Assembly (NCBI GenBank): GCA_919902105.1
Contig: CAKKQO010000037.1
Span: 5,598 to 69,597 of the forward strand
Length of the DNA stretch: 64,000 bases
Source of the DNA: Omnitrophica bacterium GWA2_41_15
GTDB taxonomy: Bacteria > Omnitrophota > Gorgyraeia > Ghiorseimicrobiales > Ghiorseimicrobiaceae
Direction of reading: 5' to 3'
How positions within the stretch are numbered: position 1 is the first letter of the stretch; each line of letters starts with the position of its first letter. Below the pieces are notes generated by a model, which saw nothing but the letters and a program-made list of their open reading frames with translations, ran no database searches and was not told where the DNA came from. Shown piece after piece: positions 36,382-53,916 of this stretch. The position numbers were made by a program, and so were the translations under genes.

Positions 36382-36404
36382 ATGTAGACCGCGTAGGTCT
36401 ACAG
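36382..36404. repeat. REP-like palindrome, copy 2 (inverted orientation, loop gcgta)
   Basis: tgtagaccgcgtaggtctaca. Confidence 0.9.
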
Positions 36405-36845
36405 GGGTCTGGTAAATTTTCCGCTTTTACCGCCTTCTTTTTCTAAGAGCTTTACTTCTATAGTCATATTTTTATCTAAATATTTGCACATATCATAGAC
36501 ATTTAGTGCGGCTATTGCTGCCGCGTTTAACGCCTCCATTTCAAAGCCGGTGCGTGCATTGCCTGAAACTTCGGATTTTATCAGAAGCGCGTCCTTCTTA
36601 AAGGAAAAAGAGATATCAATGTGGGAAAATTCTATTGGATGAGCGAGCAGGATTAAATCCCTGGTTTTTTTTGCCGCCTGTATGCCGGCAAGGGTTGAAA
36701 CTGCTAATGCATCTCCCTTTTTAATTTTACCTTGCATAATTAACTTTAAGGTTTCTTTTTGCATGGAAACCTTCGCCTCCGCCACCGCCCTGCGCTGTGT
36801 TTTCGGTTTATCTGATACATTCACCATTGCTATTTTTTTGTTCAT
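36399..36845 (-). CDS. moaC: Cyclic pyranopterin monophosphate synthase accessory protein
   Basis: MVNVSDK...ALAVSTLAGIQAAKKT...GFEMEALNAAAIAALNVYDMCK is typical of MoaC. Confidence 0.85.
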   Translation of the reverse strand: MNKKIAMVNVSDKPKTQRRAVAEAKVSMQKETLKLIMQGKIKKGDALAVSTLAGIQAAKKTRDLILLAHPIEFSHIDISFSFKKDALLIKSEVSGNARTGFEMEALNAAAIAALNVYDMCKYLDKNMTIEVKLLEKEGGKSGKFTRPL

Positions 36846-37750
36846 GAGAGCATCCCTTCTAAATTTTTACCTAGAATGTTCTGTTTATCTTCTTGGGAGA
36901 TTTTTAAATTCCTGACTGCGTTTATCGAGCCGGCAATATCTTTTTTTGCCGGCCAGTCGCTTCCCCAGAGGATATGCCCAGGCCCTAATAATTCTAAGGC
37001 GGCTTGGAAGTTTGTGTCTTTCGTGTCGCCGCTGGTATCCACATAGATATTCTTTAGATATTCGCCAGGATTGCCTTTTAAGTCTTTTACGAAATTTATG
37101 CCGCGAAGCATGCCATAAGTTGCCTCAAAACGGCCGGCTAAATGCGTAATTACTCCCCCGAAATAGGCAAAGATAAATTTAACGCCAGCAAATTCGCGTA
37201 ATATATCCGCCATTAAGAGTTTACCGATACAAATAGTAGTATCAAAGACGTATTCAATTACCGGCGTAAGCAATGGGTCTTTGACGCGCTCAAAACCGAT
37301 TGGGTTGATGATCTGGGAATGGACGAATACGGGAATATTCTTTTGCGCAGCTTCATTATAAACAGGTAAAAATAGAACATCATCTAAATATTTACCATTG
37401 TAACTACTGGCTAAAGAAATTGCCTTAAAGCCAAGTTTTTCGGTTGCGCGCTTAATTTCATCAAGTATATCCTGTCCATTGTCTATCGGCAGGATTGAGG
37501 CGCCGATAAATCGGCTAGGATAGCGTTTAATAATTTTTCCGACGTTATCGTTATAAATCCGCGCTACTTTACTGATGCTTCCTAATTTTAAATGCGCATC
37601 TGAGGTGGGATAACTTAAGACGGCCATATCAATGCCTGTCTCATCCATCATCTTAAGATGCGCTTCAATGTCCCCCCAGCCCTGATGAAAAAAATGGGCG
37701 TTATTGATAATATCTTGGGGTAACCAGTGGCTATGTGCGTCGATTATCAT
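36842..37750 (-). CDS. Amidohydrolase-2 family metal-dependent hydrolase (TIM barrel)
   Basis: The N-terminus MIIDAHSHW and C-terminus WGSDWP are typical of PF04909. Confidence 0.7.
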   Translation of the reverse strand: MIIDAHSHWLPQDIINNAHFFHQGWGDIEAHLKMMDETGIDMAVLSYPTSDAHLKLGSISKVARIYNDNVGKIIKRYPSRFIGASILPIDNGQDILDEIKRATEKLGFKAISLASSYNGKYLDDVLFLPVYNEAAQKNIPVFVHSQIINPIGFERVKDPLLTPVIEYVFDTTICIGKLLMADILREFAGVKFIFAYFGGVITHLAGRFEATYGMLRGINFVKDLKGNPGEYLKNIYVDTSGDTKDTNFQAALELLGPGHILWGSDWPAKKDIAGSINAVRNLKISQEDKQNILGKNLEGMLS

Positions 37751-38352
37751 ATTGTTAGTTCTGCTGTGTCAATATAAAGCGCGCCTTTTGCCTCAGCCAG
37801 CGGCTCAAATTGAAAACTTTTTACGGGAAAGTCTAATATGGCATTTGCATTGGCTGTCTGCGGCTGCCAGTCGCCTCTGGCAAAGAATTCGTTGAACGGA
37901 CAGCTTATTTGTTTCCAGCCGCTAAAATCATCGGTAATTATAAAACGCCACATTTCATTGCCGGAATCTTTAATATCGAAGGCAATTTTTGTTTTTGAGC
38001 CGCTGCCGTAGATATAAAAACTTATGGCGTTGTATTTTTTCCAGTCAATGCTTTCCGGAGTGAGGAGCCATGCAGAATTTTTAACGTCTAAACTGAATCC
38101 TTTGGCTATCCACATGTAACCGCCTGAAACTGCATCGTAAACTATTTTTAGTGATTGCGCGCCTGAATTTTTAATATTTGTATCGGCAGTTACTGCGACT
38201 GATGAGCCGTTGCCTGAGCCAAAGTCCACCGTGCCATTTTCTCCTCCGGAAATTTCACCTTCAAAATCTTCGATTAACAAACCTTTTTCCTGCGCAAAAC
38301 AAGGCATTGAGAATAAGAAAAACAGAATAAGAATAAGTTTTGTTATTTTCAT
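37747..38352 (-). CDS. Secreted protein with a putative carbohydrate-binding-module-like beta-sandwich
   Basis: Signal peptide MKITKLILILFFLFSMPCFA; the remainder is low in sequence complexity and tentatively CBM-like. Confidence 0.35.
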   Translation of the reverse strand: MKITKLILILFFLFSMPCFAQEKGLLIEDFEGEISGGENGTVDFGSGNGSSVAVTADTNIKNSGAQSLKIVYDAVSGGYMWIAKGFSLDVKNSAWLLTPESIDWKKYNAISFYIYGSGSKTKIAFDIKDSGNEMWRFIITDDFSGWKQISCPFNEFFARGDWQPQTANANAILDFPVKSFQFEPLAEAKGALYIDTAELTI

Positions 38353-38404
38353 TATTTTGCCCCCTGTTTTTAAAATTTTATTCTTTGAATTTTGCCATTT
38401 GTCA

Positions 38405-39178
38405 TTACTTCTCAGGATGCACCTGTTTAAACGGTATTACCGGCGCAGTCCACGGTGTCTGCTGATTTATTACTGCAATCTCTAACGGACAGACATTTGC
38501 CGGAACGGTTAAGGCAAATTTAACTGCGTTTTCAATTGCTTCGGTTGTCATCAGCCGAGAAGTATCGGCGGTTATTTCCTGCAATTTTCCCGTTAAATCC
38601 GTATCGGTTACGCCGGGAAGAATCGATGTTATTTTTATCCCGCGGTCACGCATTTCCCAGAATAAGCCTTTAGAAAATGCCCTTAGTCCTACTTTAAGCG
38701 AGCTATAAACCAGAAAATTTCTCGGTAACGGGTCACATAAAGTTGAGCCGGAGACCAGATTGATAATCGCACCGCTTTTGTTGTTAATCATATCGTTTAT
38801 GACGAGACGTATCAGGCGCACATATCCGAGATAATTAGTATGCGCTAATTTTTCGAAATCTTCAAGCGGTTGTTTTTCAAAAGGATACTGGCTGGATACG
38901 CCGGCATTATTAATCAAGATGTCAATTTTACCGAATTTGTCTTTAGTTTTATTAATCAGATTTTCCAAATCTTCTAATTTGGTTACATCGCAAGGCACAG
39001 CTAAAACCCCTACTTTGTATTTTTGGGCGATTTCATCCGCCGTTTCTTCCAACGGCCCTTCGGCTCGCGCAGCAATGCTTAAGTTTATGCCTAAGCTTGC
39101 GCAGGTTTTGGCAATGGCTTTGCCTATGCCGCGGCTGGCGCCGGTTATAATTGCCGTTTTTCCTTTTAAGTCAGGCAT
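38405..39178 (-). CDS. SDR-family oxidoreductase (FabG-like ketoreductase)
   Basis: TGASRGIGKAIA, NNAG and the YSSLK (YxxxK) motifs. Confidence 0.85.
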   Translation of the reverse strand: MPDLKGKTAIITGASRGIGKAIAKTCASLGINLSIAARAEGPLEETADEIAQKYKVGVLAVPCDVTKLEDLENLINKTKDKFGKIDILINNAGVSSQYPFEKQPLEDFEKLAHTNYLGYVRLIRLVINDMINNKSGAIINLVSGSTLCDPLPRNFLVYSSLKVGLRAFSKGLFWEMRDRGIKITSILPGVTDTDLTGKLQEITADTSRLMTTEAIENAVKFALTVPANVCPLEIAVINQQTPWTAPVIPFKQVHPEK

Positions 39179-39188
39179 TTATCCTCCT

Positions 39189-39641
39189 TTAGGCATTAAT
39201 TTTCTCACTTGCTTCCTTTTCGATAATTTCTTTAAAAATTTTTAGGTTTTCTTTAGAATGTTTGTTAATGAAGCCCTCTACCTGCTCGTCATTGAATTTG
39301 GCTTTTGTATCCATTTCAAAGTGTTGTATCCATATTAGCTCGATGCCCTCCGCTTTGTGAGTGTAGAGCCAGATAATTTTCATATATTTAAAGGGGAATT
39401 TTGGCTCTTCCCGTTCGGCATAGGCAAAAAATTTATCTTTAAAAAGCAGCCGCCATGACTGCCAGGATTTTCCTTCATCATCAGTCAGGCGGAAAGTTAT
39501 TTTATTGCCTTCTTTTTTCACGACTTCTGCTTTTTGGTATTCTGTACCAAATAGCTCTGTCCAGCGTAGTATATCATTGGAAATATCAAAAACTTTATCG
39601 TACGGCGCGTTAATGATTATAGAATTACAAGTATGTCCCAT
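39189..39641 (-). CDS. SRPBCC / polyketide cyclase-dehydrase-like protein
   Basis: A 150-aa protein of the Polyketide_cyc2-like fold; tentative. Confidence 0.45.
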   Translation of the reverse strand: MGHTCNSIIINAPYDKVFDISNDILRWTELFGTEYQKAEVVKKEGNKITFRLTDDEGKSWQSWRLLFKDKFFAYAEREEPKFPFKYMKIIWLYTHKAEGIELIWIQHFEMDTKAKFNDEQVEGFINKHSKENLKIFKEIIEKEASEKINA

Positions 39642-39698
39642 AATTCCTCCCTTCGGTCGGAAAGTTTACAGTTAATAATGAACAGTTTACAGAAAAAA

Positions 39699-40013
39699 TC
39701 ATTTACCAGAAAGGCTTAAAAGTATTGCTAAGTTCTCATTCGCGCTTAGTGAGTGTGGCGCGTTTTTCGGCATAAAAATAAATATACCCGGTTTCATTTT
39801 GATCTTTTTGCCGTTTAATACAAATGTTCCCTTCCCTTTTAAAACCGTAACCGCGGCTTCTCTGGTTGAAGTATGCTCGGAAATATCGCTGCCTTTAGCT
39901 AAACACATTAGCGTATGATTAGAAATATCCGTCTTAACCAAAACCTTACTAAAAATGCCCTGTTTGGGGAATTCCATCATCTGCTCTAAATTTTCTATTG
40001 CTGATTTAACCAT
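39699..40013 (-). CDS. Cupin-domain protein
   Basis: GKGTFVLNGKKIKMKPGIFIFMPKNAPHSL matches the cupin motif pair. Confidence 0.6.
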   Translation of the reverse strand: MVKSAIENLEQMMEFPKQGIFSKVLVKTDISNHTLMCLAKGSDISEHTSTREAAVTVLKGKGTFVLNGKKIKMKPGIFIFMPKNAPHSLSANENLAILLSLSGK

Positions 40014-40023
40014 AAATTACCTC

Positions 40024-40818
40024 TTATGTTATAATTGCCGCTACTCTTGCCCAAGCAGCACCAGTTTTTCTGATTTTCACCGGAAGGCAATGGATTTTAA
40101 AGCCGTAATCGGGTAACTTGTCCAAATTGGCTAACCTCTCAATATGAATAAATTCCCTAATTCTGCCGTAAAAATGCGCCGGGTATAAAGGTTTCTTTTG
40201 TTCTAAGAACTCTTTAAGCATAAACCTGTAGGGCCTATCTATTCCCATCGTATCTACGCCGAAAATTTTTATTCCATGGTCTAAGAGATAATCTATTGCC
40301 GAAATATCCACTCCCGGATAATCCGAGAAGTATTTTGGTCCACCGTATAGCTTATCCGCTCCAGTGGCTAAAAGAACGATATTGAAAGGCTTAAGCTGGT
40401 AGTTAATTTTTGAAAGGGCGGATTTGATATCGCTGTTGGTGATAACTTCATTCGGTTTTTTGTGCTTAAGGTCAATTTTTACGCCGTTCTGTATGCAATA
40501 TTCTAAGGGAATTTCTTCGGCGGTTTTTGCGGCGCGCCCTTCTGATTTTGAGCCGTAGTGGTAGGAGTAGTCAAGGTGCGTGCCAATATGTACCGGCGAA
40601 TGCACCGTTTCTAACGATAAAAATTCTTCATCGGGCAAGTCTTCTTTTCTGATGATGCGCATACCGAGAGCATATTTTATCTTACCCAGCAGGGTTTTCC
40701 CCATCATCACGCGATTAAACTTTTCCACCCCCGCCGCGTGGTTTACGCGTTCAATCTCAACCTTATGCACTTCAAATGCCGTATCATCAATCGGCAAACT
40801 CAAATCAATTATTTTCAT
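40024..40818 (-). CDS. Cyclase-family protein (kynurenine-formamidase-like, PF04199)
   Basis: HIGTHLD matches the HxGTHxD motif. Confidence 0.7.
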   Translation of the reverse strand: MKIIDLSLPIDDTAFEVHKVEIERVNHAAGVEKFNRVMMGKTLLGKIKYALGMRIIRKEDLPDEEFLSLETVHSPVHIGTHLDYSYHYGSKSEGRAAKTAEEIPLEYCIQNGVKIDLKHKKPNEVITNSDIKSALSKINYQLKPFNIVLLATGADKLYGGPKYFSDYPGVDISAIDYLLDHGIKIFGVDTMGIDRPYRFMLKEFLEQKKPLYPAHFYGRIREFIHIERLANLDKLPDYGFKIHCLPVKIRKTGAAWARVAAIIT

Positions 40819-40829
40819 CTCATCTAACC

Positions 40830-40852
40830 ATGTAGACCGCGTAGGTCTACAT
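40830..40852. repeat. REP-like palindrome, copy 3 (loop gcgta), downstream flank of the RAYT gene
   Basis: atgtagaccgcgtaggtctacat. Confidence 0.9.
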
Positions 40853-40857
40853 AAGGT

Positions 40858-41523
40858 TTATTCTATAAACAAGTCTTTAATTCGCGTTAATTCTCTTTGG
40901 TATGAAATTCTATCCTCTGTAAATTTTTTATAATTTCCCGGCAGAACATTGATATGGCTATTAAAATGACAGTATCTTGGCGTTTCTTCAATGCCTAAGT
41001 ATTCTCTATACGAGGAGTACCGCCATAATTCAGGCTTATCTACTAAAAAAGCAGTTACAGGATTTAAATGTATGTACCGACTTAAATGAAGAAGTTGCTC
41101 TTCGTTCTCTACGAGTTTACTTTTAAATCGGCTTTCCCAGAGAGGTCCTTTACGCTTATGTTTTGTATTGAAATAACGTGTATAGCTATTGAGAATATTA
41201 TTTACAGAACGCGAAATTCCATTATCTTCTAATTGTTTAAAAATTAAATGAATATGGGTTGGCATTATGCAATATGCGATTATATCTACGATCTTGGCTT
41301 TTTGGCGAAGATAATCGCCAAGAACTATATTTATATCAGAATTGTTTGTTTCGTTCAACTCAAGAAAGCGCGCCAGGCATGAGGAGTGTTTGCCTATCAT
41401 GTAATATCTCACTGTTGTTAGGATTCTTTGATATTCCCAGTTGGTGTTAAATATGGTGAATCCGGCTATGCTCTTATTAAAGATATGATAAATTTCGCCC
41501 GTAACTAATGGATGTTGTCTCAT
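40858..41523 (-). CDS. REP-associated tyrosine transposase (RAYT; IS200/IS605 TnpA-like Y1 HUH enzyme)
   Basis: The HUH motif is present as IMPTHIHLIF and the catalytic Tyr motif as YIHLNPV. The gene is flanked by inverted REP copies 3 and 4. Confidence 0.8.
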   Translation of the reverse strand: MRQHPLVTGEIYHIFNKSIAGFTIFNTNWEYQRILTTVRYYMIGKHSSCLARFLELNETNNSDINIVLGDYLRQKAKIVDIIAYCIMPTHIHLIFKQLEDNGISRSVNNILNSYTRYFNTKHKRKGPLWESRFKSKLVENEEQLLHLSRYIHLNPVTAFLVDKPELWRYSSYREYLGIEETPRYCHFNSHINVLPGNYKKFTEDRISYQRELTRIKDLFIE

Positions 41524-41531
41524 TACCGTTT

Positions 41532-41554
41532 ATGTAGACCTACGCGGTCTACAT
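41532..41554. repeat. REP-like palindrome, copy 4 (loop tacgc), upstream flank of the RAYT gene
   Basis: atgtagacctacgcggtctacat. Confidence 0.9.
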
Positions 41555-41556
41555 GG

Positions 41557-41790
41557 TTAGAATTTGGAAGTGATGATTTTTTCAATATCGTTTACAGTAC
41601 TGAATTTAGTGATTTCTTTGGCGCTGAATTTTGTGCTAAATGCCTTCTCAAGGGCAATTACTGCCTCAACCATTTCCGTTGAATCAACGCCGATGCTATC
41701 TTGCAAAGAAACCTCGTCTTTTAATTCTTCAGGTTTAATCTTTAGCAATTTAACCAATGTATCCTTAATTTTAGTTTTTGTTTCCATTTT
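41557..41790 (-). CDS. Acyl carrier protein
   Basis: LQDSIGVDSTEMVEAVIALEKAF carries the Ser of the DS phosphopantetheine-attachment motif. The start is taken at METKTK, not at the longer ORF-track start. Confidence 0.75.
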   Translation of the reverse strand, partial: KMETKTKIKDTLVKLLKIKPEELKDEVSLQDSIGVDSTEMVEAVIALEKAFSTKFSAKEITKFSTVNDIEKIITSKF

Positions 41791-41803
41791 TTTCTCCCTG
41801 AAT

Positions 41804-43264
41804 TTAGATATGCACTTCGCCTTTGGTGGCACCTGCTTCCCATCGGCCGACACCTGCCATTACGTCTTTAAAGCAAAGTTTGGCGAGTTCGTCAAAATCG
41901 CTTTCTAAGATACGGTGGATTCTTCCCGGCTTTGAATAAAATTCGCGCATACACCAAGCGCCTAACTCGCCTAATTGCTGAAGGGATAAATGGTCTGTTG
42001 GCATAACCGGATGCAGGAAATCCCATTGCAGGAAATTAATTGTTTTAGGGTTAATCCAGTTTTTCTTTAAGCCCATCCTCCACATCGGTGAATTCGGCGA
42101 AGGTGTAACATAGCCGATCCATAAGATATCCGGGTCAACCTCGTCGGTAAATTCATATCTTTGTTTGATAATCGCCTCGTTGTCATAATCAAAACCCATC
42201 ATAATATCGGCAACTACGGCGATGTCGTGTTTACGTAATATCTCAACTGTGCGTTTTATCTGCTCAACAGTAATGCCTTTGGCGATTTTCTTTAATTCTT
42301 CCGGCGTAGTAACTTCTATGCCGAATACGCCGATAAAAAGGCCGGTTTCTTTCATTAGGGGTAATATTGGCTCACAGTTAACCCAGTCAATCGCGCGCCC
42401 CAAAGAAACCCATTTAATCGGGTTATTATGGGCTTTTTTGAGTTCGCAGAATTTCTTTACCCTTTCCGGATTGGTATTAAAGTTATCGTCTTGTAAAACT
42501 ACTACTTTTACACCGTATTTTTTATGTAAGATATCCAATTCTTCAATTACCCTTTCTGGAGATTTTGCCCGCCATTTCAAGAAGTCCGAAGGGTTGCGCG
42601 GGTCATACTGGTCCCATTCATAACAGAATGTGCAGGCAGAGGGACATCCCCGCGAGGTGACCATATCCACAAACGGCTTCCAGTGGGTATGCCCGACATA
42701 TTTATCCATCGGGAATAAATCATAAGCCGGAAGCGGAAGTTTATCCAAGTCCATATTCAGCGGGCTGTAGGGGCCCATTACGGGTTTACCGCTGGCGCGG
42801 CTGGTGACACCGGCAACTTTCGTTAGGTCTTTTTTCTTGTCTATTGCCTCTATTAAATCGCCGAATGATTCTTCTTCGCCCATAACTACAAAATCTACGG
42901 CCGGATTTGCCGTAAGTGTTTCCGTAGGCATTGCTGAATACCAAAGCCCGCCGAAAATAATCTTGGTTTTAGGCAGAGCTTCTTTTATCCGTTTTGCTGC
43001 GTCGTTAAAATGCGCTACCACAGCGTATCCGCCGTAAGAATGTAATTGCTCCCCTAAAACTACGATATCAGGATTTTTTTCTTTTACTTTAGCGACCATT
43101 TCATCTGCCTGGATTTCAAGGGCCTTACAGTCTAAAACTTCTATCGTTTCGTATCCTTTTTCCCTGACATACGCCGCCCAGTGCGCGTAGAGCTGGTTAG
43201 GTGCTACATGTTTTCCATGCGTTGCCCAAGCGCCTACTTTCGGCATAACAAATAAAATTTTCAT
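41804..43264 (-). CDS. B12-binding-domain radical SAM enzyme (class B radical SAM methyltransferase-like)
   Basis: N-terminal cobalamin-binding region IVVLGEQLH...FGGLW and the radical SAM CxxxCxxC motif as SRGCPSACTFC. Confidence 0.8.
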   Translation of the reverse strand: MKILFVMPKVGAWATHGKHVAPNQLYAHWAAYVREKGYETIEVLDCKALEIQADEMVAKVKEKNPDIVVLGEQLHSYGGYAVVAHFNDAAKRIKEALPKTKIIFGGLWYSAMPTETLTANPAVDFVVMGEEESFGDLIEAIDKKKDLTKVAGVTSRASGKPVMGPYSPLNMDLDKLPLPAYDLFPMDKYVGHTHWKPFVDMVTSRGCPSACTFCYEWDQYDPRNPSDFLKWRAKSPERVIEELDILHKKYGVKVVVLQDDNFNTNPERVKKFCELKKAHNNPIKWVSLGRAIDWVNCEPILPLMKETGLFIGVFGIEVTTPEELKKIAKGITVEQIKRTVEILRKHDIAVVADIMMGFDYDNEAIIKQRYEFTDEVDPDILWIGYVTPSPNSPMWRMGLKKNWINPKTINFLQWDFLHPVMPTDHLSLQQLGELGAWCMREFYSKPGRIHRILESDFDELAKLCFKDVMAGVGRWEAGATKGEVHI

Positions 43265-43279
43265 TCTAACCCCTTCCTT

Positions 43280-44512: not shown

Positions 44513-44520
44513 CTATTTTA

Positions 44521-44549
44521 ACCATGTAGACCTACGCGGTCTACATGGT
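44521..44549. repeat. REP-like palindrome, copy 5 (perfect 12-bp stem) between the two KS genes
   Basis: accatgtagacctacgcggtctacatggt. Confidence 0.9.
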
Positions 44550-45811: not shown

Positions 45812-45814
45812 ATT

Positions 45815-46408: not shown

Positions 46409-47400
46409 TTAGTCACGGCCTCAATTAATTCCTCTTTACTCAAAAATTTTCCGGTTTTCTCCACCTGATGCACCATTTCAACTAGTTTTTCGTTTAGGGG
46501 TGCCTTGAGATTATTTTTCTTAGCTAGATTCACAAACTCGCCGTTGATGTAGTCTATCTCAGATGTGCGATTTCTTTTAATACTTTGTAATATAGAGCCG
46601 TAAAGCGGCTGGCGGCTTAGATTAAACATAATATTAGAAAAAATCTTCGCCGCTTCATCACGCGGCATATTTGCAAGCGCCACATATCGTCTAATGTCGA
46701 ATTCCGGTAGCGACACCGGCTGAATTCCGCATTTTTCTATGATATTAAAGGTTTCTTTAAGCAGTTGAATGCTTATCGCCGCCATCTCTACCTCTTTAAA
46801 AGTCTCTTGCATGCTGAGGCCTACGACAGCGGGGATGCAGTTATTTAAGTTGATAAATAACTTTGTCCATTTCATCCCCTTTATGTGTTCAGAAACACTA
46901 ACTTTAAAAGTGCTACTTAAGGATTGCTCTACCTCTTTTAATTTATCGTCAATTTTTCCGTCTAACCGACCAATAATGCAGCCACCTTCAAAGTTATGGG
47001 TGATATGGCCGTAATCCAAATAAGTTGAGCCGAACATTACGATGCTGGAAATAATATCCGCGCCTTTAGCTGACTTGGCGACAATTTCATCAGCGCGTAT
47101 CCCGTTTTGCGTAGTTAAAATTATGCTATTTACTAAAAATGTTTCGTTTTGTGAAATTGCTTCTTCTATGTCTTGCGTTTTGACCGCTAATATTACTAAA
47201 TCCGCGGGTGTATCCATTTGCGCGCGCGCGTTTATTTTTACTGATAATTTGCCGCGTACGCCTTCAATCTTTAAACCATTTTTATTGATAAATTCGGCCT
47301 GTTCTTTTTTAGCGACTAAGATGACGTCTGCACCCTTATCCTTTAGATACGCCGCGACTAATCCGCCGATTGCCCCTGCGCCAATGACTGCTATTCTCAT
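46405..47400 (-). CDS. Ketopantoate-reductase-family (PanE/ApbA) NAD(P)-dependent oxidoreductase
   Basis: MRIAVIGAGAIGG Rossmann N-terminus with an ApbA_C-like C-terminus. Confidence 0.7.
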   Translation of the reverse strand: MRIAVIGAGAIGGLVAAYLKDKGADVILVAKKEQAEFINKNGLKIEGVRGKLSVKINARAQMDTPADLVILAVKTQDIEEAISQNETFLVNSIILTTQNGIRADEIVAKSAKGADIISSIVMFGSTYLDYGHITHNFEGGCIIGRLDGKIDDKLKEVEQSLSSTFKVSVSEHIKGMKWTKLFINLNNCIPAVVGLSMQETFKEVEMAAISIQLLKETFNIIEKCGIQPVSLPEFDIRRYVALANMPRDEAAKIFSNIMFNLSRQPLYGSILQSIKRNRTSEIDYINGEFVNLAKKNNLKAPLNEKLVEMVHQVEKTGKFLSKEELIEAVTK

Positions 47401-47672
47401 TTTGGGTATCCGTATTTTTTATAGTCAAACCCGCTTTTTTCTAACAAGCGCACCATCATGCTATAAAATGGCGATGGCACGTCCGAGAAAAAGGCGGAAA
47501 TTACGTCTTGTTCTCCTACTTCTCCGGCGTTACGCCTAAAGGCATTTTCCTCCGCCTTTTTAGTGACAACGCTTTCGGTAATCCGACGGTGAAAGACCGG
47601 AATTTTCGCGATCATTTCTTTAAATTTTTGCTGAGTCTCACTATCCCAGTTCATTTTATATTTTTTACGCAA
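47397..47672 (-). CDS. Small PCP_red-like domain protein (protochlorophyllide-reductase 57-kDa subunit C-terminal-like, PF08369)
   Basis: MNWDSETQQKFKEMIAKIPVFHRRITESVVTKKAEENAFRRNAGEVGEQDV fits the W..EA...L..IP.F.R pattern. Confidence 0.4.
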   Translation of the reverse strand: MRKKYKMNWDSETQQKFKEMIAKIPVFHRRITESVVTKKAEENAFRRNAGEVGEQDVISAFFSDVPSPFYSMMVRLLEKSGFDYKKYGYPK

Positions 47673-49200
47673 ACCACGACGTAACCAAAGATTTACCTGT
47701 AGGGTTTAAGTCAATATTTACGTGTTTGGTTTGAGTGTATTCTAAGAGACCTTCTTTGCCAAGTTCGCGGCCAAAACCACTTTCTTTGTATCCCCCAAAA
47801 GGCGCTTCGTTATAAAAACCGCCATAGGTATTTATCCAGACGGTTCCACAGCGCAGTTGCTGTGCTACTTGATTGGCGCGGGTTAGGTCCTTGGTCCAGA
47901 CCATCGCGGCTAAGCCAAAGCGTGTATTATTTGCGATTTTAACCGCTTCATCTTGTCCGGAAAATTTAATAATTGATAGCACCGGCCCGAATATTTCCTC
48001 TTGCGCAATACGCGCGTTATTATCCACATCCGTAAATATCGTTGGCTCCAAATAAAACCCATTTTCCAAACCATGTAGACCTACGCGGTCTACATCGGGG
48101 ATGGTGCCGCCAGAGATGAGTTTGGCTTCATGTTTACCGATTTCGATATAATTTAAAACGTTTTGCCGATGCTCAGCTGAAATTAATGGACCAAAGTCGG
48201 TGTCGTAAGATGCGGCATTACCGATTTTTAACTTTTTAGTTTTTGTAACCAATAAATCAATAAATTTATCGTATATTTTATCTTCAAGTATTAATCGTGA
48301 GCCGGCGGTGCACATCTGCCCTTGATTCATAAAGATTGCCGACATTGAACCGCCAACTGCCGCCTCTATATCGCAGTCGGCAAATACAATATTTGGGCTT
48401 TTGCCGCCCAATTCAAGAGAGAGTTTTTTGGTGTTGCCTGATGCCATTTTCATTATTTCTTTTCCCGCGGTATTTCCCCCGGTAAAAGAGACCATATCTA
48501 CGAGTTTACTCTCACAGATTGTTTTACCTACCTCATTAGCGGTTCCGGTAATAATATTCACTACGCCTTTGGGTAAGCCAGCCTCTTGTATTATTTTGGC
48601 TAATTCTAAGCAGCTTAATGAAGCAAGTTGTGAGGGTTTAAAAACTATCGTGTTTCCCAAAATAATTGCCGGTGCTATTTTCCAAGCCGCCATTAAAAAC
48701 GGATAATTCCAAGGGATAATCTGGCCGATAACGCCTATTGGCTCGCGAAATGTAAAACTTAGCGCCGGATTATGTATAGGTATGGTTTCGCCTTTAACCG
48801 CAGATGCCGCAGCTGCAAAATACTCAAAGGCCGATGCGGCTGTCGGGATATCAATAAAAGTGGTTTGTTTTATAGTTTTTCCGGTGTCTTGCGATTCCAA
48901 CTTGGCTAATTCCGCTGCTTCTTCCCTTATAATCTGGGCAATTTTTTGTAGATAGGGCGCGCGTTCAATAATCTGCATTTTAGGCCAGTCGCCGCTATCA
49001 AAGGCGAATCTAGCGGCTTTAATCGCTTTTTCTGTATCTTTAGCGTCTGCGGCAGGAAATTCCGCCAATGTTTCTCCAATAGAAGGATTAATACTGGCAA
49101 TAGTATTTTTATTACCGGCTTCTACAAATTCGCCATTAATATACGTTTGATATTTTTTCATTTTTTTCTCGCTACTCACTTCGTGGGTGCTAGTTTCCAC
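47665..49200 (-). CDS. NAD(P)+-dependent aldehyde dehydrogenase
   Basis: ELGGKSP, catalytic Cys in QGQMCTAGSRL, and EEIFGPV. The loop TIPDVDRVGLHGLEN is encoded by REP copy 6. Confidence 0.85.
   Translation of the reverse strand: METSTHEVSSEKKMKKYQTYINGEFVEAGNKNTIASINPSIGETLAEFPAADAKDTEKAIKAARFAFDSGDWPKMQIIERAPYLQKIAQIIREEAAELAKLESQDTGKTIKQTTFIDIPTAASAFEYFAAAASAVKGETIPIHNPALSFTFREPIGVIGQIIPWNYPFLMAAWKIAPAIILGNTIVFKPSQLASLSCLELAKIIQEAGLPKGVVNIITGTANEVGKTICESKLVDMVSFTGGNTAGKEIMKMASGNTKKLSLELGGKSPNIVFADCDIEAAVGGSMSAIFMNQGQMCTAGSRLILEDKIYDKFIDLLVTKTKKLKIGNAASYDTDFGPLISAEHRQNVLNYIEIGKHEAKLISGGTIPDVDRVGLHGLENGFYLEPTIFTDVDNNARIAQEEIFGPVLSIIKFSGQDEAVKIANNTRFGLAAMVWTKDLTRANQVAQQLRCGTVWINTYGGFYNEAPFGGYKESGFGRELGKEGLLEYTQTKHVNIDLNPTGKSLVTSWFA
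48073..48095. repeat. REP-like palindrome, copy 6, lying inside the aldehyde dehydrogenase CDS in frame and encoding DVDRVGLH
   Basis: atgtagacctacgcggtctacat within ORF 47665-49200. Confidence 0.85.
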
Positions 49201-50168
49201 AAATCAAAGATGCGGTTAAACGGGGCATACCAGCGGGATAGTTTTGCCATATCGCCTTTTAGTTTAAGCTTGTGTTGTGTTGCCGCAGCAAAAGGGTCAA
49301 GTTTTCTCTCGAAAACCAAGCGCCAGACAGCCGCAGGCCCCGAGATAACAAATTCCGCGTCTTCATCGTTGGTTACTTCTTCAATTTTTCCTTTATTAAA
49401 GTGAAAATTATAAACTTTATTTTCTTCATCAACCCTTATTGCTAATTTCGTGGTTAAATTAAGCGCCTCTCCCTTTTCTTTTGCTTCCTTATCCTCATTA
49501 ACCAGAGAAACAATTTTATTAATATGATCTTTTGAAAATAAATCGTATTTTTTGACCGTATCAACCGCGTAGGTTGATATTGGTTTTAGGTTAGAAAATG
49601 TTGCGGGAGCGTTTCTCAGGGTAAGGTTTACTTTGCAGGCTTCTTCTAACATTTCAAGCCATGAGAATGCCTCTTTGAAAGATGACCCGACTGAGACAAT
49701 GCCGTGTTTTTTTAAGACAACGATATTGCTTAAGCTTAATGCATCTAAAACAGGTAAAACATTGGTTACAATCGGGCCACCCTGCTCAATTACCGGGATG
49801 TTAGACAGATAAAGACGCGCTTCGTAGCTGAATATATCTAATGTGTTAAATTTAGCATAAAAGGCAGTAGTAAAGTTTGGGTGGGCATGGATAATGGCAT
49901 TAATCCCCTCTTTTTCATAAGCCGCCAAATGCATTGCTAATTCTGATGTGGGTTTTAAGTTAGTTCCAGAAACAGGTTTACCTTTCTTATCAACGATTAT
50001 GATTTCCTCTTCGCTTAAATAACCCAGATAAGCATTATGCGCGGTGACTAAAAACTTATCCTTATCCAGGCGTAGAGAAATATTGCCGCAGGGGCCGCTG
50101 ACAAAAGAGCGGTTATGCAGTTCTTTCGCCCAGAATACTATTTCTTTACGTTCTCTTGCATATAACAT
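49176..50168 (-). CDS. Class II aldolase/adducin-family protein fused to a C-terminal SCP2 sterol-carrier domain
   Basis: Aldolase_II-type N-terminus (HAHP, GIVSVG) and a C-terminus ISGPAAVWRLVFERKLDPFAAATQHKLKLKGDMAKL that looks SCP2-like. Confidence 0.6.
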   Translation of the reverse strand: MLYARERKEIVFWAKELHNRSFVSGPCGNISLRLDKDKFLVTAHNAYLGYLSEEEIIIVDKKGKPVSGTNLKPTSELAMHLAAYEKEGINAIIHAHPNFTTAFYAKFNTLDIFSYEARLYLSNIPVIEQGGPIVTNVLPVLDALSLSNIVVLKKHGIVSVGSSFKEAFSWLEMLEEACKVNLTLRNAPATFSNLKPISTYAVDTVKKYDLFSKDHINKIVSLVNEDKEAKEKGEALNLTTKLAIRVDEENKVYNFHFNKGKIEEVTNDEDAEFVISGPAAVWRLVFERKLDPFAAATQHKLKLKGDMAKLSRWYAPFNRIFDLWKLAPTK

Positions 50169-50177
50169 TATATTTAC

Positions 50178-50204
50178 CCCATGTAGACCTACGCGGTCTA
50201 CATG
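50178..50204. repeat. REP-like palindrome, copy 7
   Basis: ccatgtagacctacgcggtctacatgg. Confidence 0.9.
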
Positions 50205-50219
50205 GTTAGCTATTTATCC

Positions 50220-50651
50220 TTAGTTTAAGGATTCGTTCTGCGGCGTAATCACCTTTGTTTTGTTAACACAGGTTTTTATCCCTAAAAAAGTCTTGGCGTT
50301 TTGATCGGGAAACTTATCTAATTTAACATCTTTCCCTTTTTGTATTTCAAGCGCAACAGCGTGCCGCTGGGCAAGTATTTTTACCGCCTGCGCGCCCACC
50401 GGAAAAGTATTATCGTCAAAACCAAACAGATATACTTTATCTATGGCCTTTAAGAAAAATAAATGCCCTAAGCCGTTATCAGAAATAAGCGTAGATTTTA
50501 TTTTCCTTTTTTCTAATGCTTTTGCGACTATCTTTGCCCCCAAAAGATACGGACGCATCTCAGGGATAAGGATATGTTTATCCTTTACTTCTCTATAAAA
50601 ATCTTCCGGGGGTATGCCATAAATAAGTATGTATTTATTTATCCTTTCCAT
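50220..50651 (-). CDS. Truncated eIF-2B/MtnA-family paralogue (C-terminal Rossmann-like half only)
   Basis: KIKSTLISDNGLGHLFFLKAIDKVYLFGFDDNTF aligns to the MtnA stretch IPATLIVDSAAGSLM..GKIDAVIVGADRV but lacks the NKIGT motif. Confidence 0.35.
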   Translation of the reverse strand: MERINKYILIYGIPPEDFYREVKDKHILIPEMRPYLLGAKIVAKALEKRKIKSTLISDNGLGHLFFLKAIDKVYLFGFDDNTFPVGAQAVKILAQRHAVALEIQKGKDVKLDKFPDQNAKTFLGIKTCVNKTKVITPQNESLN

Positions 50652-51637
50652 TTTTTCGCAAACTCCTGCGGCGTATATATTCCGTCAAAAAAGATTAAGC
50701 CGCTGATTAGTTCATTAGGCACAACGTCAAAAGCCGGATAAAGCGCATCTTGGCTTTTGGAAGTAAGCCATTTATTTCTAAATAAGAGCATTTCTTCCTT
50801 GGGGCGGTATTCTATTTTTATGTCTTTTATGCTTTTAGTTTCTCCCGGAGGCTGGACAAAAGAATAAAACGGTATACGGAAATGTTTTGCTAAAACCGCA
50901 AGCTGATAGGTTCCGGTTTTATTGGCAATATCGCCGCCAATGGTGACGCGGTCAGCGCCAGTTAGGACCATATCTATGCGGCATCTTTTTAAAATGTCCG
51001 CCGCTTGATTATCGCAAAAAAGATACACGGAAATATCAGCCCGGTTTAATTCCCAGGTGGTAAGGCGCGAGCCTTGAAAATACGGCCGGGTTTCTGCGGC
51101 AAAAAATTCTACATGTTTACCTAATTTTTCCGCTTCATTTGTTAATGCAACTAATTCGCCTGAAATATTACAATGGGTTAAGATACGCGTATTTTGGGGA
51201 ATAACTTGCGCGGCAAGTTTTGCCCGGTACCTGCGCGCATTCTGTATTGACTCGATATAATTGATTACGGTATTTTTAAGCCCGGCAAAAAAATTATCAT
51301 TTTTGTCGTTCTTAAGCATATTGATTAATTCGTCTTTTAGCTGTCCAAAGGCAAAGGTTGGCCGGCTTTTAATAAATTTTTCGGTTGTTTCTTCTAGAAG
51401 CGGCAGGAACTTATTTAATGCGTCTATTTTTCTATTTTTTGCCTCGAGAATAAGTATGTAATAAAATAAAAGCACCTGCCCAAAAGCACGCGTCTTCATT
51501 TCCGCCAGCACCGAAAGTGCGTTTTTTAGATTTTTTACCTTGATGTATTTTACGTCAAAAGGAAGCCGCGTTTCGTCTAAAACCGCGATATGCCCGCCCT
51601 TAAAGATAGCTGGATGGAACAACAATGATTCTTTCAT
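50639..51637 (-). CDS. mtnA: eIF-2B alpha/beta/delta-family isomerase (methylthioribose-1-phosphate isomerase or ribose-1,5-bisphosphate isomerase)
   Basis: LTGADRVTIGGDIANKTGTYQLAVLAKHFRIPFY. Confidence 0.75.
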   Translation of the reverse strand: MKESLLFHPAIFKGGHIAVLDETRLPFDVKYIKVKNLKNALSVLAEMKTRAFGQVLLFYYILILEAKNRKIDALNKFLPLLEETTEKFIKSRPTFAFGQLKDELINMLKNDKNDNFFAGLKNTVINYIESIQNARRYRAKLAAQVIPQNTRILTHCNISGELVALTNEAEKLGKHVEFFAAETRPYFQGSRLTTWELNRADISVYLFCDNQAADILKRCRIDMVLTGADRVTIGGDIANKTGTYQLAVLAKHFRIPFYSFVQPPGETKSIKDIKIEYRPKEEMLLFRNKWLTSKSQDALYPAFDVVPNELISGLIFFDGIYTPQEFAKKWKG

Positions 51638-52386
51638 TACTTACTTTCTAAGAGTTTAATTGCCTCAAACGCAACTTTGATAATCTTCTGTTCGGCTTCG
51701 TAGTAATTGATATTCGTAAAACCCATTTCACCGGTAATTACGTTATCCGAGACGGCCATAATTGAGGCAGCCTTACAGTTATTTAACTGGGCAATGGTCA
51801 GGAAGCTTGATGAAACCATATCCACGGCAATTGCGCCTTTAGATATAAAACTTTCAACGATTTGGCGCGTTTCGCGCAAGAGCGCGTCAGTTGTCCAAAT
51901 CGGGCCTTTGTGGTAACGCACACCTAAATTTTGCGCCGCCTTAACTAAGGCATCGGTTAATTTATTGTCTGGTATTGTTTTAAAATTGTCTTTTACGTAG
52001 TATGGGGTAACGCCATCGCCGCGGATGGCAGAGGTTACAATAATGATGTCTCCTATTTGTATATCTTCGCGAAGTGCACCACTTGAGCCGGTGCGAATTA
52101 AATTATCTACCCCGCCGTTTGTGAGGATTTCGGCGCTGATGGCGCTGTCTGCAGAATACCTGCCTCCGTTTCCTACCGTAACCTTTGTGCCGTTAAAATC
52201 TCCGGAATAAAAGGTATATTCCATAAAAGAGAAGTTCCTCACCGGATTTTTTATCTGTTTTAAGGCCGCATCGCGGCGGTCAGCTGGGCCGGTGACAAGC
52301 GCATATTTTCCAAAGTCATGCGGTTTTATCCCAAGCATATATAATAATTCTTTCGCCGTTAAGTGAATATCTTTCTTCATTGGCAT
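51637..52386 (-). CDS. Purine/uridine/MTA nucleoside phosphorylase family protein (PNP_UDP_1)
   Basis: ALVTGPADRRDA...TGSSGALRE...DMVSSS pattern. Confidence 0.7.
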   Translation of the reverse strand: MPMKKDIHLTAKELLYMLGIKPHDFGKYALVTGPADRRDAALKQIKNPVRNFSFMEYTFYSGDFNGTKVTVGNGGRYSADSAISAEILTNGGVDNLIRTGSSGALREDIQIGDIIIVTSAIRGDGVTPYYVKDNFKTIPDNKLTDALVKAAQNLGVRYHKGPIWTTDALLRETRQIVESFISKGAIAVDMVSSSFLTIAQLNNCKAASIMAVSDNVITGEMGFTNINYYEAEQKIIKVAFEAIKLLESK

Positions 52387-53876
52387 TTCAATGCCTCCTT
52401 ATCAACCTTACCTACCCTGTTTTTTGGTATAGAGCCAACAAATTCTATTCTCTGTGGCACTTTAAAGTGCGCAAGGTGCTCTTGGCAAAAAACCCTTAAA
52501 TCACTCTCGCAAAGATCGCTGCGTTTGTTTTTAACGACAAATGCCTTAATAGTTTCCCCTCTTAACTTATCCGGCACTCCGATAACCGCGGCCTCTAAAA
52601 TATCTTGATGCTTATGCAGGGCTGCTTCTACTTCCGGCGCATAGACTAATTGTCCGGAAACCTTAATCATTTCTTTTTTTCTGCCTGCGATATATAAAAA
52701 CCTTTCTTCATTAAACCTGCCTAAATCTCCGGTATAAAACCAGCCGTTTTTTAGCACACGGTTTGTTTCTTGCGGGTTTTTATAATAACCCTTCATTACT
52801 ACCCAGCTTTTTATGGCTACCTCTCCTATTTCACCAGGCGCAACCGGCTCATCTTTTTCGTCGATGATGGAGATTTCAATCCATGGCGCGGGCTTACCGA
52901 CGCTGGCGATATTTTTACTACCTAAGGGGATAACTGTATTCGGCGGGCAGGTTTCGGTTAGCCCCCAGCCGTTTAAAAGATGCGTATTCGGGCAGTATTG
53001 ATGAAAACGCGCCAGGACATCGGAGCTGCTGGGCGCGCCAAAGACCACCATCCAGCGCAAGGAAGATAAATCATGCCTCTCGAACTCTTTTAGCTGTAAA
53101 ATCGCATAATACATTGAAGGCACAATATGAAAACAAGTTACTTTATACCTTTCAATGTTCTTTAAGAATTCAAGTGGTGAAAACCGTTCCATTAGAACCA
53201 GTGTAATATTAAAACAGACACAGTTCTGGATATAGATTAATCCGCCGCTGTGTGAAAGCGGAAGACTTGAAAGTTTTATGTCTTTCTCGGTCAGGTCAAC
53301 AAAATATTTCATTGCCTCGGGCGAGCCGGATAGATGTTTATAGGTAAGTAATACACCCTTGGGATTTCCGCTGGTGCCCGAAGTATACATTATTAAGGCA
53401 TCGTCAGTTTCCGAGACTTGATTTTGCGGGGTAATACTTTCGGCATTATGCATAATTTCTTCAAAACTAATGAATTCGCCGCTATCTTTCCCCAAAATAA
53501 TAATATTTTCCAAAGATTTTACCTGTTTTTTAATTTCTTCCAAAGATACATCCGGCTTTCTTGCGGTAATAAGGAGTTTAGTTTCGGAATGTTTCAGGCA
53601 GGAAATTAACTCTTCGTTCTTAAACATAAAATCAAGAGGGACAACCGTCACGCCTAAGCAAAACAAAGATAAGTAACTATAGACATATTCCGGGCAATTC
53701 GGAAGATAAATTGCTGCCTTATCCTGTTTCTTTACGCCATTTTTTTTAAGCGCCTCGGCTAACTTAAAGACGTTATCTTTTAGTCGGCTAAAGCTTACGG
53801 CGTTATCCTTAAAGATTAAGGCAGGTTTATCAGGCGAGATTTTGGCGTTGTGGATTAGGAGCTTTATTGTATCCAT
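52377..53876 (-). CDS. AMP-dependent synthetase/ligase (acyl-CoA synthetase family)
   Basis: AMP-binding motif I YTSGTSGNPKGV, plus GWGLTE and a C-terminal Lys motif. Confidence 0.85.
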   Translation of the reverse strand: MDTIKLLIHNAKISPDKPALIFKDNAVSFSRLKDNVFKLAEALKKNGVKKQDKAAIYLPNCPEYVYSYLSLFCLGVTVVPLDFMFKNEELISCLKHSETKLLITARKPDVSLEEIKKQVKSLENIIILGKDSGEFISFEEIMHNAESITPQNQVSETDDALIMYTSGTSGNPKGVLLTYKHLSGSPEAMKYFVDLTEKDIKLSSLPLSHSGGLIYIQNCVCFNITLVLMERFSPLEFLKNIERYKVTCFHIVPSMYYAILQLKEFERHDLSSLRWMVVFGAPSSSDVLARFHQYCPNTHLLNGWGLTETCPPNTVIPLGSKNIASVGKPAPWIEISIIDEKDEPVAPGEIGEVAIKSWVVMKGYYKNPQETNRVLKNGWFYTGDLGRFNEERFLYIAGRKKEMIKVSGQLVYAPEVEAALHKHQDILEAAVIGVPDKLRGETIKAFVVKNKRSDLCESDLRVFCQEHLAHFKVPQRIEFVGSIPKNRVGKVDKEALKCQ

Positions 53877-53916
53877 AGTAAAATTTTACTACCTTCACAA
53901 TAGTAAAATTTTACTA
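53876..53916. promoter_or_regulatory. Two identical, perfectly palindromic 16-mers TAGTAAAATTTTACTA (53876-53891 and 53901-53916) bracketing the RBS of the acyl-CoA ligase gene, directly downstream of the PadR gene
   Basis: Read directly from the sequence. On the mRNA the order is palindrome, UUGUGAAGG, palindrome, AUG. Confidence 0.7.

Follow-up and report, generated by a model that had tools for sequence, protein, structure and literature searches.

A predicted type II polyketide synthase-like operon of the Omnitrophota with a B12-binding radical SAM enzyme and an embedded DHAP-shunt-like module

Type II aromatic polyketide synthases (PKSs), such as those of the actinorhodin, tetracenomycin, WhiE and Photorhabdus Ant systems, place a Cys-His-His ketosynthase (KS), the KS-alpha, beside an inactive paralogue and use a discrete acyl carrier protein (ACP). 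They also have a monodomain TcmN/WhiE aromatase/cyclase, a PF04199-type cyclase, a small cupin, a short-chain dehydrogenase/reductase (SDR) and a CoA-ligase gene. We found all of these features in a minus-strand run of co-directional genes, tightly packed or overlapping, from ~54.6 to 36.8 kb of a 64,000-nt stretch of DNA from Omnitrophica bacterium GWA2_41_15 (the window; GCA_919902105.1, contig CAKKQO010000037.1, positions 5,598-69,597). At a probability of roughly 45%, we read this operon of about 15-18 kb as a PadR-repressed, conserved operon of the Omnitrophota whose product would be an aromatic polyketide, hydrophobic and formed under anoxic conditions. By its predicted proteins it is of a known kind, a type II PKS-like operon, and what is new in it is a clade of radical S-adenosylmethionine (SAM) enzymes and an embedded module resembling the dihydroxyacetone phosphate (DHAP) shunt.

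The operon differs from the type II aromatic PKSs in several respects. Those clusters are strain-specific, whereas this one is found phylum-wide in an uncultured anaerobic phylum, and their chain-length factors (CLFs) have Gln where the inactive partner here has Arg or Lys. We know of no other type II PKS cluster with a B12-binding radical SAM enzyme, a TIGR04076 protein, a PanE-like reductase or a nucleoside-to-acid module. Our literature searches found no paper describing this operon; a KS-CLF catalogue lists Candidatus Omnitrophica (PMC10132072).

Cluster I of anammox bacteria (amxACP, amxFabF2/amxFabF-mut and a B12-radical SAM enzyme), proposed to make ladderane lipids, shares with it the dedicated ACP, the active KS, the triad-less KS, the cobalamin radical SAM enzyme and a host of the PVC group. 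However, Cluster I has amxFabZ and a phytoene-desaturase homologue, both absent from the window and from the conserved gene set, whereas aromatic cyclases and a decarboxylase are present here. The KS pair of the window is also nearer to act KS and FabF than to the chains of 9s5h, which we take to be the anammox FabF pair. The amxFabF2/amxFabF-mut heterodimer has been found to behave like a KS/CLF pair (anammox heterodimer study).

In ligase-primed systems, such as aurachin (AuaC/D with an anthranilate ligase) and cispentacin (AmcF/AmcG with AmcH), an unusual acid is loaded on a discrete ACP by an adenylating enzyme, after which a KS/CLF-like pair elongates it by a small number of malonyl units. 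Both KS proteins of the window weakly matched AmcF (162 and 152 bits) and the ACP matched AmcB, far under the Amc cut-offs. The difference is that the starter here would derive from a route through a sugar-phosphate aldolase and an aldehyde dehydrogenase (ALDH).

Synthase core, radical SAM enzyme and tailoring genes

Gene identities were taken from Pfam and NCBIfam profile matches to the window proteins, and PDB sequence scores were obtained for selected proteins. All operon genes given below lie on the minus strand. The competent, KS-alpha-like ketosynthase (44549..45811) has Cys170, His310 and His347 and an STGCTAGTD motif, and these three residues were kept in 61 of 61 orthologues. Adjoining it is a catalytically dead, CLF-like partner (43280..44512), 33% identical to the KS, where 68 of 68 sequences have Arg/Lys163, Asp303 and Asn340 instead of the triad, as does a second, diverged lineage (lineage B, see below). 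The alignments thus bear out an earlier first-pass annotation of this DNA, according to which the KS retains Cys-His-His and its neighbour has lost all three. Because the Arg/Lys-Asp-Asn pocket is fixed across the 68 sequences and lineage B, the partner is not a decaying pseudo-enzyme. Position 163 was Arg in 59 and Lys in nine of the 68, and never Gln. In classical CLFs, as known from the actinorhodin system, the former Cys position is Gln and priming is decarboxylative.

The KS scored 381 bits against act KS-alpha (1tqy_A), 379 against AntD (6smo_B), at most 361 against FabF (B. subtilis FabF, 361) and 293 against 9s5h_B. Neither the KS (463) nor its partner (387) passed the FabF equivalog TIGR03150, whose cut-off is 493.75. 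The stand-alone ACP (41557..41787; PF00550; 76 aa) has a GVDS serine motif and scored 34.8, against an AcpP equivalog cut-off of 70.45.

FabZ, FabI, FabH and FabD were not found in any locus or among the conserved families of 80 loci, and an enoyl reductase and a dehydratase are absent from the conserved set. We rejected a housekeeping fatty acid synthase (FAS) on the KS score under the FabF equivalog cut-off and on the missing FabH, FabD, FabZ and FabI companions. An aryl polyene cluster, offered as an alternative in the first-pass annotation, was dropped for want of FabZ/FabA-type dehydratases in the set; its sole reminiscence is the MMPL/LolA-like export genes in few loci. The same annotation had also noted a resemblance to type II PKSs and had taken a competent KS, its inactive partner, a stand-alone ACP and a class-B radical SAM enzyme as the basis of a biosynthetic operon. 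Both views held, and the former is strengthened by the KS matches to act KS-alpha and AntD and by a match of the SRPBCC protein to TcmN/WhiE. These results point to an unreduced, aromatic type II PKS-like line, not to an FAS, aryl polyene or ladderane synthase.

BchE (anaerobic Mg-protoporphyrin monomethyl ester cyclase) and other class-B radical SAM enzymes share with the B12-binding radical SAM enzyme of the operon (41804..43264; PF02310 and PF04055) an N-terminal B12-binding domain and a CxxxCxxC core, here CPSACTFC. BchE (TIGR02026) was also its top-scoring named family, but at 199.9 bits against a cut-off of 481.35, and it falls in a tight, separate clade with uncharacterised neighbours. 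The ladderane-type family TIGR04072 gave 75.5 bits (cut-off 360), and the PDB matches, AprD4, TokK and CysS, were weak. C-methylation, which the first-pass annotation had proposed, is not specifically supported, since the top families, BchE and HpnJ, are both non-methylases and all matches were far under their cut-offs. An exhaustive search of representatives revealed no characterised close relative. Four full-length representatives were more than 36% identical (49, 48, 40 and 37%); below them lies a continuum at ~30-35% identity, all of which score best against BchE and far under its cut-off. On these scores the enzyme represents an uncharacterised BchE-like subfamily, separate as a clade, and it is a constant member of the gene set.

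The SRPBCC protein (39189..39641; PF10604, PF03364) is a predicted TcmN/WhiE-type polyketide aromatase/cyclase, with PDB matches to TcmN (2rez, E 2.3e-24) and the WhiE cyclase (3tl1, E 2.3e-23). The PF04199 'putative cyclase' (40024..40818; E 3.4e-28), metal-dependent and kynurenine formamidase/cyclase-like, retains the His/Asp metal motif HIGTHLDYSYH. An Amidohydro_2 protein (36842..37750) is of the non-oxidative aromatic-acid decarboxylase type, its top PDB matches being LigW 5-carboxyvanillate decarboxylase, ACMSD and gamma-resorcylate decarboxylase. Two reductases are encoded, an SDR (38405..39178; PF00106, E 8e-50), 56-93% and mostly at least 74% identical across loci, and a PanE/ApbA-family NAD(P)H ketoreductase (46405..47400), which passed TIGR00745 with 188.5 bits (cut-off 141.35). 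The cyclases, the decarboxylase and both reductases look intact by their sequences. An assignment of the SDR as a C-9 ketoreductase of type II PKSs (actKR-like) was rejected, as its top matches are generic FabG and glucose dehydrogenase types.

The remaining genes of this part encode a tandem TIGR04076 Cys-rich protein (45815..46408), a small DUF2621 protein (47397..47654; PF11084 E 6e-6, below the gathering score) with a faint PCP_red match (PF08369 E 0.022), and two accessory proteins. One of these is a small cupin (39699..40013; PF07883), present in a minority of loci; the other is a CBM_11-like beta-sandwich protein (37747..38352; PF03425, E 3.8e-25) with a clear N-terminal signal peptide, so it is predicted to be secreted or periplasmic. 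Where the CBM_11-like gene is absent, as in locus L010, a 138-aa helical protein of no known family is encoded between the SDR and Amidohydro_2 genes. The ALDH and the DUF2621-like protein begin later than their longest open reading frames (ORFs).

All 16 genes that the first-pass annotation named, from the ligase to the SDR, were found on the minus strand in the order it gave. However, its list omitted a transposase, an MtnA fragment and the CBM_11-like and Amidohydro_2 genes, and the interval it assigned to the cluster, 36399-53916, also spans the last two and a MoaC gene. The CBM_11-like and Amidohydro_2 genes are part of the conserved set.

The nucleoside-to-acid module, its operator and its conservation

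The DHAP shunt (MtnP or MtnN/MtnK, MtnA and Ald2) and the DrdK-DrdI-DrdA route of 5-deoxyribose salvage have the same enzyme order as the upstream part of the operon, namely phosphorylase, MtnA-type isomerase and class II aldolase. In the Streptomyces cattleya fluoroacetate route these three steps are followed by an aldehyde dehydrogenase, which the ALDH here mirrors. The MtnP variant of the DHAP shunt consists of a phosphorylase, MtnA and a class II aldolase and converts 5'-deoxyadenosine or methylthioadenosine to adenine, DHAP and acetaldehyde or 2-methylthioacetaldehyde (PMC10986504).

The module begins with an adenylate-forming acyl-CoA/acyl-ACP ligase (52377..53876; AMP-binding and AMP-binding_C), whose top NCBIfam match was a long-chain-fatty-acid-CoA ligase at 424.6 bits, under the cut-off of 476. 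A hexameric NP-I-type nucleoside phosphorylase (PNP; 51637..52386; PF01048, PNP_UDP_1) follows; its top PDB matches tie between uridine phosphorylase (3qpb, 88.9 bits) and the 5'-methylthioadenosine phosphorylase of S. solfataricus (1jds, 88.4 bits), and it did not match the MtnP model. The MtnA-like, 5-substituted ribose-1-phosphate isomerase (50639..51637; PF01008, IF-2B/MtnA) scored 221.7 bits against NF004326 (cut-off 271) and retains the THCN Cys and GADR Asp motifs. Next to it lies a 143-aa degenerate MtnA-fold fragment (50220..50651) with weak IF-2B/MtnA matches to the middle of the profile and neither catalytic Cys nor Asp. It adjoins the MtnA-like gene in many loci, takes the form of an IF-2B protein of 176 aa in locus L083 of lineage B, and is probably a non-catalytic partner.

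The class II aldolase (49176..50168; Aldolase_II and SCP2) is fused to an SCP2 lipid-binding domain. The aldolase part fits the class II (Zn) Ald2/DrdA/FucA type and the other part has a true SCP2 fold, and the fusion is constant across loci. The NAD(P)-dependent ALDH (47665..49161; PF00171, 585 bits) has invariant catalytic Cys and Glu columns. The module thus differs from the DHAP shunt in its hexameric UP/PNP-type phosphorylase in place of MtnP, the extra degenerate isomerase partner, the SCP2 fusion, the added adenylating ligase and its position within a PKS/radical SAM operon. Judged by family membership, PNP, MtnA-like isomerase, aldolase-SCP2, ALDH and ligase would form a coherent DHAP-shunt-like route from nucleoside to aldehyde, acid and thioester. 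The first-pass annotation had given these five as a loose list; their presence was right, but the module is co-inherited with the PKS genes.

A PadR-family regulator gene (54054..54632, minus strand; PF03551, E 3.5e-14) lies 178 nt upstream of the ligase. Between the two, also on the minus strand, is a promoter-like TTGACA-17-TAAAAT (53936..53908) upstream of the ligase ATG, followed by two perfect copies of the palindromic AGTAAAATTTTACT (53877-53890 and 53902-53915) that abut the ATG. The exact 16-mer palindrome TAGTAAAATTTTACTA occurs in 31 of 84 fetched loci, two of which are copies of the window's own contig and 29 others; the number of matches expected by chance was estimated at <0.001. 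It always stands just upstream of the first operon gene (DUF2621 at 23 sites, ligase at nine and PNP at one), with TTGAC within 60 nt upstream in 32 of the 33 sites. Loci that bear it include L010, L016, L024, L038, L051, L058 and L083, so that it persists in lineage B and at PadR identities as low as 35-44%. In 11 operator-bearing loci and in L083, the PadR gene adjoins the cluster. We best read TAGTAAAATTTTACTA as a predicted PadR operator, and such a conserved operator would imply conditional rather than constitutive expression. The conserved operator backs control by the PadR gene that the first-pass annotation placed directly upstream of the ligase promoter. The palindrome is far better conserved than the PadR protein presumed to bind it (35-44% identity). 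A scan of the whole window with Rfam for riboswitches or other RNA control gave four tRNAs only.

The radical SAM protein was scanned against one genome per species. At least 144 species-level relatives were confirmed; the best 80 are 73-93% identical and come nearly all from metagenome-assembled genomes of Candidatus Omnitrophota. The lineage-A loci (L003-L082) number 80. Window proteins were mapped onto the loci, and genes were counted in the 39 with a full 10 kb on each side. The KS, its partner and Amidohydro_2 were each present in 38 of the 39, SDR, PanE and MtnA-like in 36, TIGR04076 in 35, and the PF04199 cyclase, aldolase-SCP2, PNP and a major facilitator superfamily (MFS) transporter in 34. 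SRPBCC was found in 32, DUF2621 in 31, ALDH in 25, the 138-aa helical protein in 19, the CBM_11-like protein in 15 and the cupin in eight. The MFS gene lies between SRPBCC and SDR in those 34 loci and is missing in the window (39178-39189 junction) and in L023.

At least three gene orders were seen. The nucleoside module stands either upstream of the core, as in the window, or downstream of Amidohydro_2, and in a third order the radical SAM gene is relocated beside the SDR, Amidohydro_2 and MtnA genes. Core proteins (KS, partner, radical SAM, TIGR04076, SRPBCC and SDR) are mostly 70-93% identical, and those of the nucleoside module 38-58%. In L010 the core proteins are more identical than the neighbouring AcpS (57%) and NnrD (63%). 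Recent horizontal transfer as the cause of the high identity was rejected, as the GC content of the cluster does not differ from that of its flanks, be it in the window, in the Thermodesulfobacteriota genome ORM2a or in other loci. One carrier is a complete chromosome of 1.27 Mb.

Lineage B, a conserved Omnitrophota family whose radical SAM protein is ~49-50% identical, is represented by L083 (ENA ERZ28654902 scaffold_16, 1-21470) and L084. The order in L083 is PadR, ligase, PNP, MtnA-like, IF-2B fragment, aldolase-SCP2, ALDH, radical SAM, DUF2621 and PanE, then KS, KS-like, ACP, cyclase, SRPBCC, MFS, a class I methyltransferase, SDR and Amidohydro_2. Besides this class I SAM methyltransferase, lineage B carries a PC4-like protein and has no TIGR04076 gene; identities to the window range from 69% (KS) down to 35% (aldolase-SCP2). 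Since the modules have stayed linked through this deep divergence and repeated rearrangement, chance adjacency is disfavoured. From its distribution, then, this is not a strain-specific secondary-metabolite cluster but one conserved across the phylum Omnitrophota. Conservation in relatives, which the first-pass annotation would have counted against a specialised cluster, was thus found, but not the FabF-type, housekeeping lipid synthesis that it had coupled with it.

The operon is also present, with radical SAM identities of 73-79%, in the closed genome of Thermodesulfobacteriota ORM2a (L028, CP113000.1) and in contigs that bear the labels Pseudomonadota, delta proteobacterium and Methanosarcinales archaeon (L023, L033 and L073). 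These occurrences reflect either old inter-phylum transfer or mis-binning, and for ORM2a and the 'Methanosarcinales' contig transfer is possible.

Genes for AcrB-type resistance-nodulation-division (RND) pumps were found in 13 loci, and MMPL, LolA-like/DUF1329 and DUF1302 genes adjoin the operon in few loci (L064 6650-9016, L079 12285-13208 and L023 9906-11333). The MMPL, LolA-like and DUF1302 set is reminiscent of outer-membrane lipid export, e.g. of aryl polyenes. Together with SCP2, the transporter genes are consistent with a product that would be hydrophobic and exported or envelope-located.

A proposed pathway and its rivals

For an aromatic polyketide, PNP, isomerase and aldolase would carry out a DHAP-shunt-type sequence on a 5'-substituted adenosine, yielding DHAP and a short aldehyde. 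The likeliest substrate would be 5'-deoxyadenosine from the operon's own radical SAM enzyme, with methylthioadenosine as the alternative. ALDH would oxidise the aldehyde to an acid and the ligase would activate the acid onto CoA or the ACP; the resulting thioester would prime the KS pair, because the partner lacks the Gln of decarboxylative priming, and extension would use malonyl-ACP. As the radical SAM enzyme releases 5'-deoxyadenosine in each turnover and the partner has no such Gln, we infer that the by-product is recycled into the starter unit. The unreduced chain would be folded and aromatised by the TcmN-type and PF04199 cyclases, then decarboxylated and reduced, and the radical SAM enzyme would modify the product by an oxygen-independent step, either methylation or a BchE-like oxidation/cyclisation. 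Export of the product might rely on transporters of the MFS, RND or MMPL type, which most relatives carry.

Several observations weigh against this proposal. The KS passed the looser FabF subfamily model PRK07314 (448.8 against 387), which its partner did not; its margin over FabF in the PDB scores is small (381 against 361 bits), and the partner itself scored higher against FabF (292 bits) than against the act CLF (266). Within the module, PNP is equally similar to uridine phosphorylase, the MtnA-like protein is under the NCBIfam cut-offs, and the ligase was seen in 11 of the 39 loci, partly since it often lies beyond the fetched flank. The link from the aldehyde module to PKS priming is one that we infer. 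Acetate, the acid expected from 5'-deoxyadenosine, would be a trivial starter for which a dedicated route is not obviously needed, and a small, polar sugar phosphate would leave the SCP2 fusion without an explanation. Moreover, phylum-wide conservation is unusual for a secondary metabolite.

Some of these points would suit a specialised fatty-acid or lipid synthase like that of the anammox ladderanes, in which the KS/dead-KS pair initiates or elongates an acyl chain on the dedicated ACP and the radical SAM enzyme remodels it, giving a housekeeping membrane lipid. The core architecture is that of anammox Cluster I (ACP, FabF2, FabF-mut and B12-radical SAM), and the Omnitrophota fall within the PVC group. 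The KS passes the FabF subfamily cut-off, the cluster is conserved phylum-wide and kept in the 1.27-Mb genome, an SCP2 domain is present beside MMPL/LolA-like lipid export genes, and antiSMASH has made 'ladderane' calls in Omnitrophota (PMC9902471). However, such a synthase is unlikely here, given that the core includes a TcmN-type aromatase/cyclase, a PF04199 cyclase and an aromatic decarboxylase and that a FabZ-like dehydratase, an enoyl reductase and a phytoene-desaturase homologue are absent. Nor is the radical SAM enzyme of the ladderane type (75.5 against 360 bits for TIGR04072), the KS scored 381 bits to act KS and 293 to the presumed anammox FabF pair 9s5h, and a conserved repressor and operator suit regulated rather than constitutive expression. 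We regard it as rather unlikely that the product is instead the aromatic head group of a primary redox cofactor, e.g. a quinone-type carrier, with SCP2 handling lipidated intermediates like UbiJ/UbiT and the radical SAM enzyme and decarboxylase standing in for oxygen-dependent or UbiD-type steps. A prenyltransferase or O-methyltransferase was not found in any of the 80 lineage-A loci, and PadR repression and MFS/RND export genes better fit a secreted or conditionally made compound. A pterin-binding protein in the window with a weak, sub-threshold CdhD-like match gives a hint only: should it mean a Wood-Ljungdahl pathway, the genome would fall in the classes that are predicted acetogens, in which a quinone is less expected. 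For a cofactor speak the core identity of 70-93% across species, above that of AcpS (57%) and NnrD (63%) in L010, the retention of the cluster in the 1.27-Mb genome and the LigW-like decarboxylase; in addition, Seymour et al. report that some classes have a UbiA-type prenyltransferase but lack chorismate lyase, which leaves the source of their aromatic precursor unaccounted for.

The SCP2 domain bears on a further explanation. The aldolase is always fused to a true SCP2, a domain for which a DHAP-shunt substrate, being small and polar, would have no use; this constant fusion, ill-suited to by-product recycling, keeps alive the idea of an adenosylated sugar phosphate that is hydrophobic at C5. 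Here the radical SAM enzyme would attach the 5'-deoxyadenosyl radical to a lipid or polyketide at an unsaturated or aromatic carbon, PNP would remove adenine, and the isomerase and SCP2-tethered aldolase would cut the ribose, leaving R-CH2-CHO, from which ALDH and ligase would give an R-CH2-CO-thioester for further KS chemistry. HpnH and MqnE carry out such additions, and HpnH/HpnG and MqnE/MqnB are precedents. In one common gene order the Amidohydro_2, MtnA, fragment, aldolase and ALDH genes are immediate neighbours of the radical SAM gene, which in lineage B directly follows ALDH, and the top matches of the ligase are long-chain acyl-CoA ligases. However, to our knowledge no B12-binding radical SAM enzyme is known to adenosylate, and simpler by-product salvage covers the same five enzymes, so we hold this route to be quite improbable. 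If true, carbon for the product would come from the adenosyl moiety of SAM, carbon chains would be extended in a new way, and the product would be a hallmark metabolite of the Omnitrophota. Very improbable, finally, is that two unrelated units, one for the salvage of SAM by-products and one for a PKS, are merely neighbours. The sugar-phosphate module does evolve faster (35-58% against 60-93% identity for the PKS core) and lies on either side of the core in different loci, but linkage is kept through at least three rearrangements, in 34-36 of the 39 full loci and in the diverged lineage B, and in the window both units share a single operator-controlled promoter.

The Omnitrophota, a widespread and uncultured phylum, consist mostly of ultra-small bacteria; they are suspected of living as predators or parasites, and we know of no metabolite from them. 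Given its conservation, its retention in a 1.27-Mb genome and its conserved repressor site, the operon's product is likely central to the biology of the phylum; it might be a redox carrier, a pigment of the membrane or cell surface, or a compound directed against hosts. New to enzymology would be a type II PKS partner with a fixed Arg/Lys-Asp-Asn pocket. The operon also defines an uncharacterised B12-radical SAM clade and gives a first clue to TIGR04076 proteins, and its aldolase-SCP2 fusion within the DHAP-shunt-like module could tie the recycling of a SAM by-product to polyketide priming. It may also lie behind the 'ladderane' biosynthetic gene cluster calls in Omnitrophota (PMC9902471), a connection that could not be made; these calls should not be taken as ladderane synthesis.

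Repeats, a transposase insertion and neighbouring genes

A 23-nt repetitive extragenic palindromic (REP) element, ATGTAGACC-N5-GGTCTACAT, occurs in seven copies in the 64-kb window and in none in shuffles, in agreement with the first-pass statement that REP elements punctuate the cluster. All seven copies lie between 35856 and 50203. The copy at 48073-48095 is in frame within the ALDH ORF, where it encodes a surface-loop insert, DVDRVGLHG. This loop is also present in the L004 orthologue and absent in L003, L010 and L082.

A REP-associated tyrosine transposase (RAYT, Y1; gene 40858-41523, unit 40823..41561, minus strand; PF01797, NF047646) lies between the ACP and cyclase genes, flanked by inverted REP arms of 32 nt that are 100% complementary. 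The insertion leaves the operon unbroken, and a matching RAYT was found in three other loci only (L004, L009 and L045). From this pattern, the RAYT is taken to be a mobile insertion outside the pathway. Short-read assemblies of the same strain (L001 and L002) stop at or near it.

Downstream of the operon, a MoaC gene (36399-36845) shares 4 nt with the end of the Amidohydro_2 gene, at its stop codon, and a MOSC-domain gene (35901-36356) comes next. Both were considered as cluster members and rejected, as they are adjacent in the three closest relatives only; they are probably neighbours rather than members of the pathway. On the other side, a 254-aa protein (54765-55529) with a weak, partial thymidylate synthase match (E 1.6e-10) is encoded among tRNA genes for Gly, Tyr and Thr, between the PadR and NnrD/AcpS genes. 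A pterin-binding protein (62518-63306) shows a weak, sub-threshold resemblance to CdhD, the delta subunit of CO dehydrogenase/acetyl-CoA synthase, which gives a hint of a Wood-Ljungdahl-type, acetogenic host.

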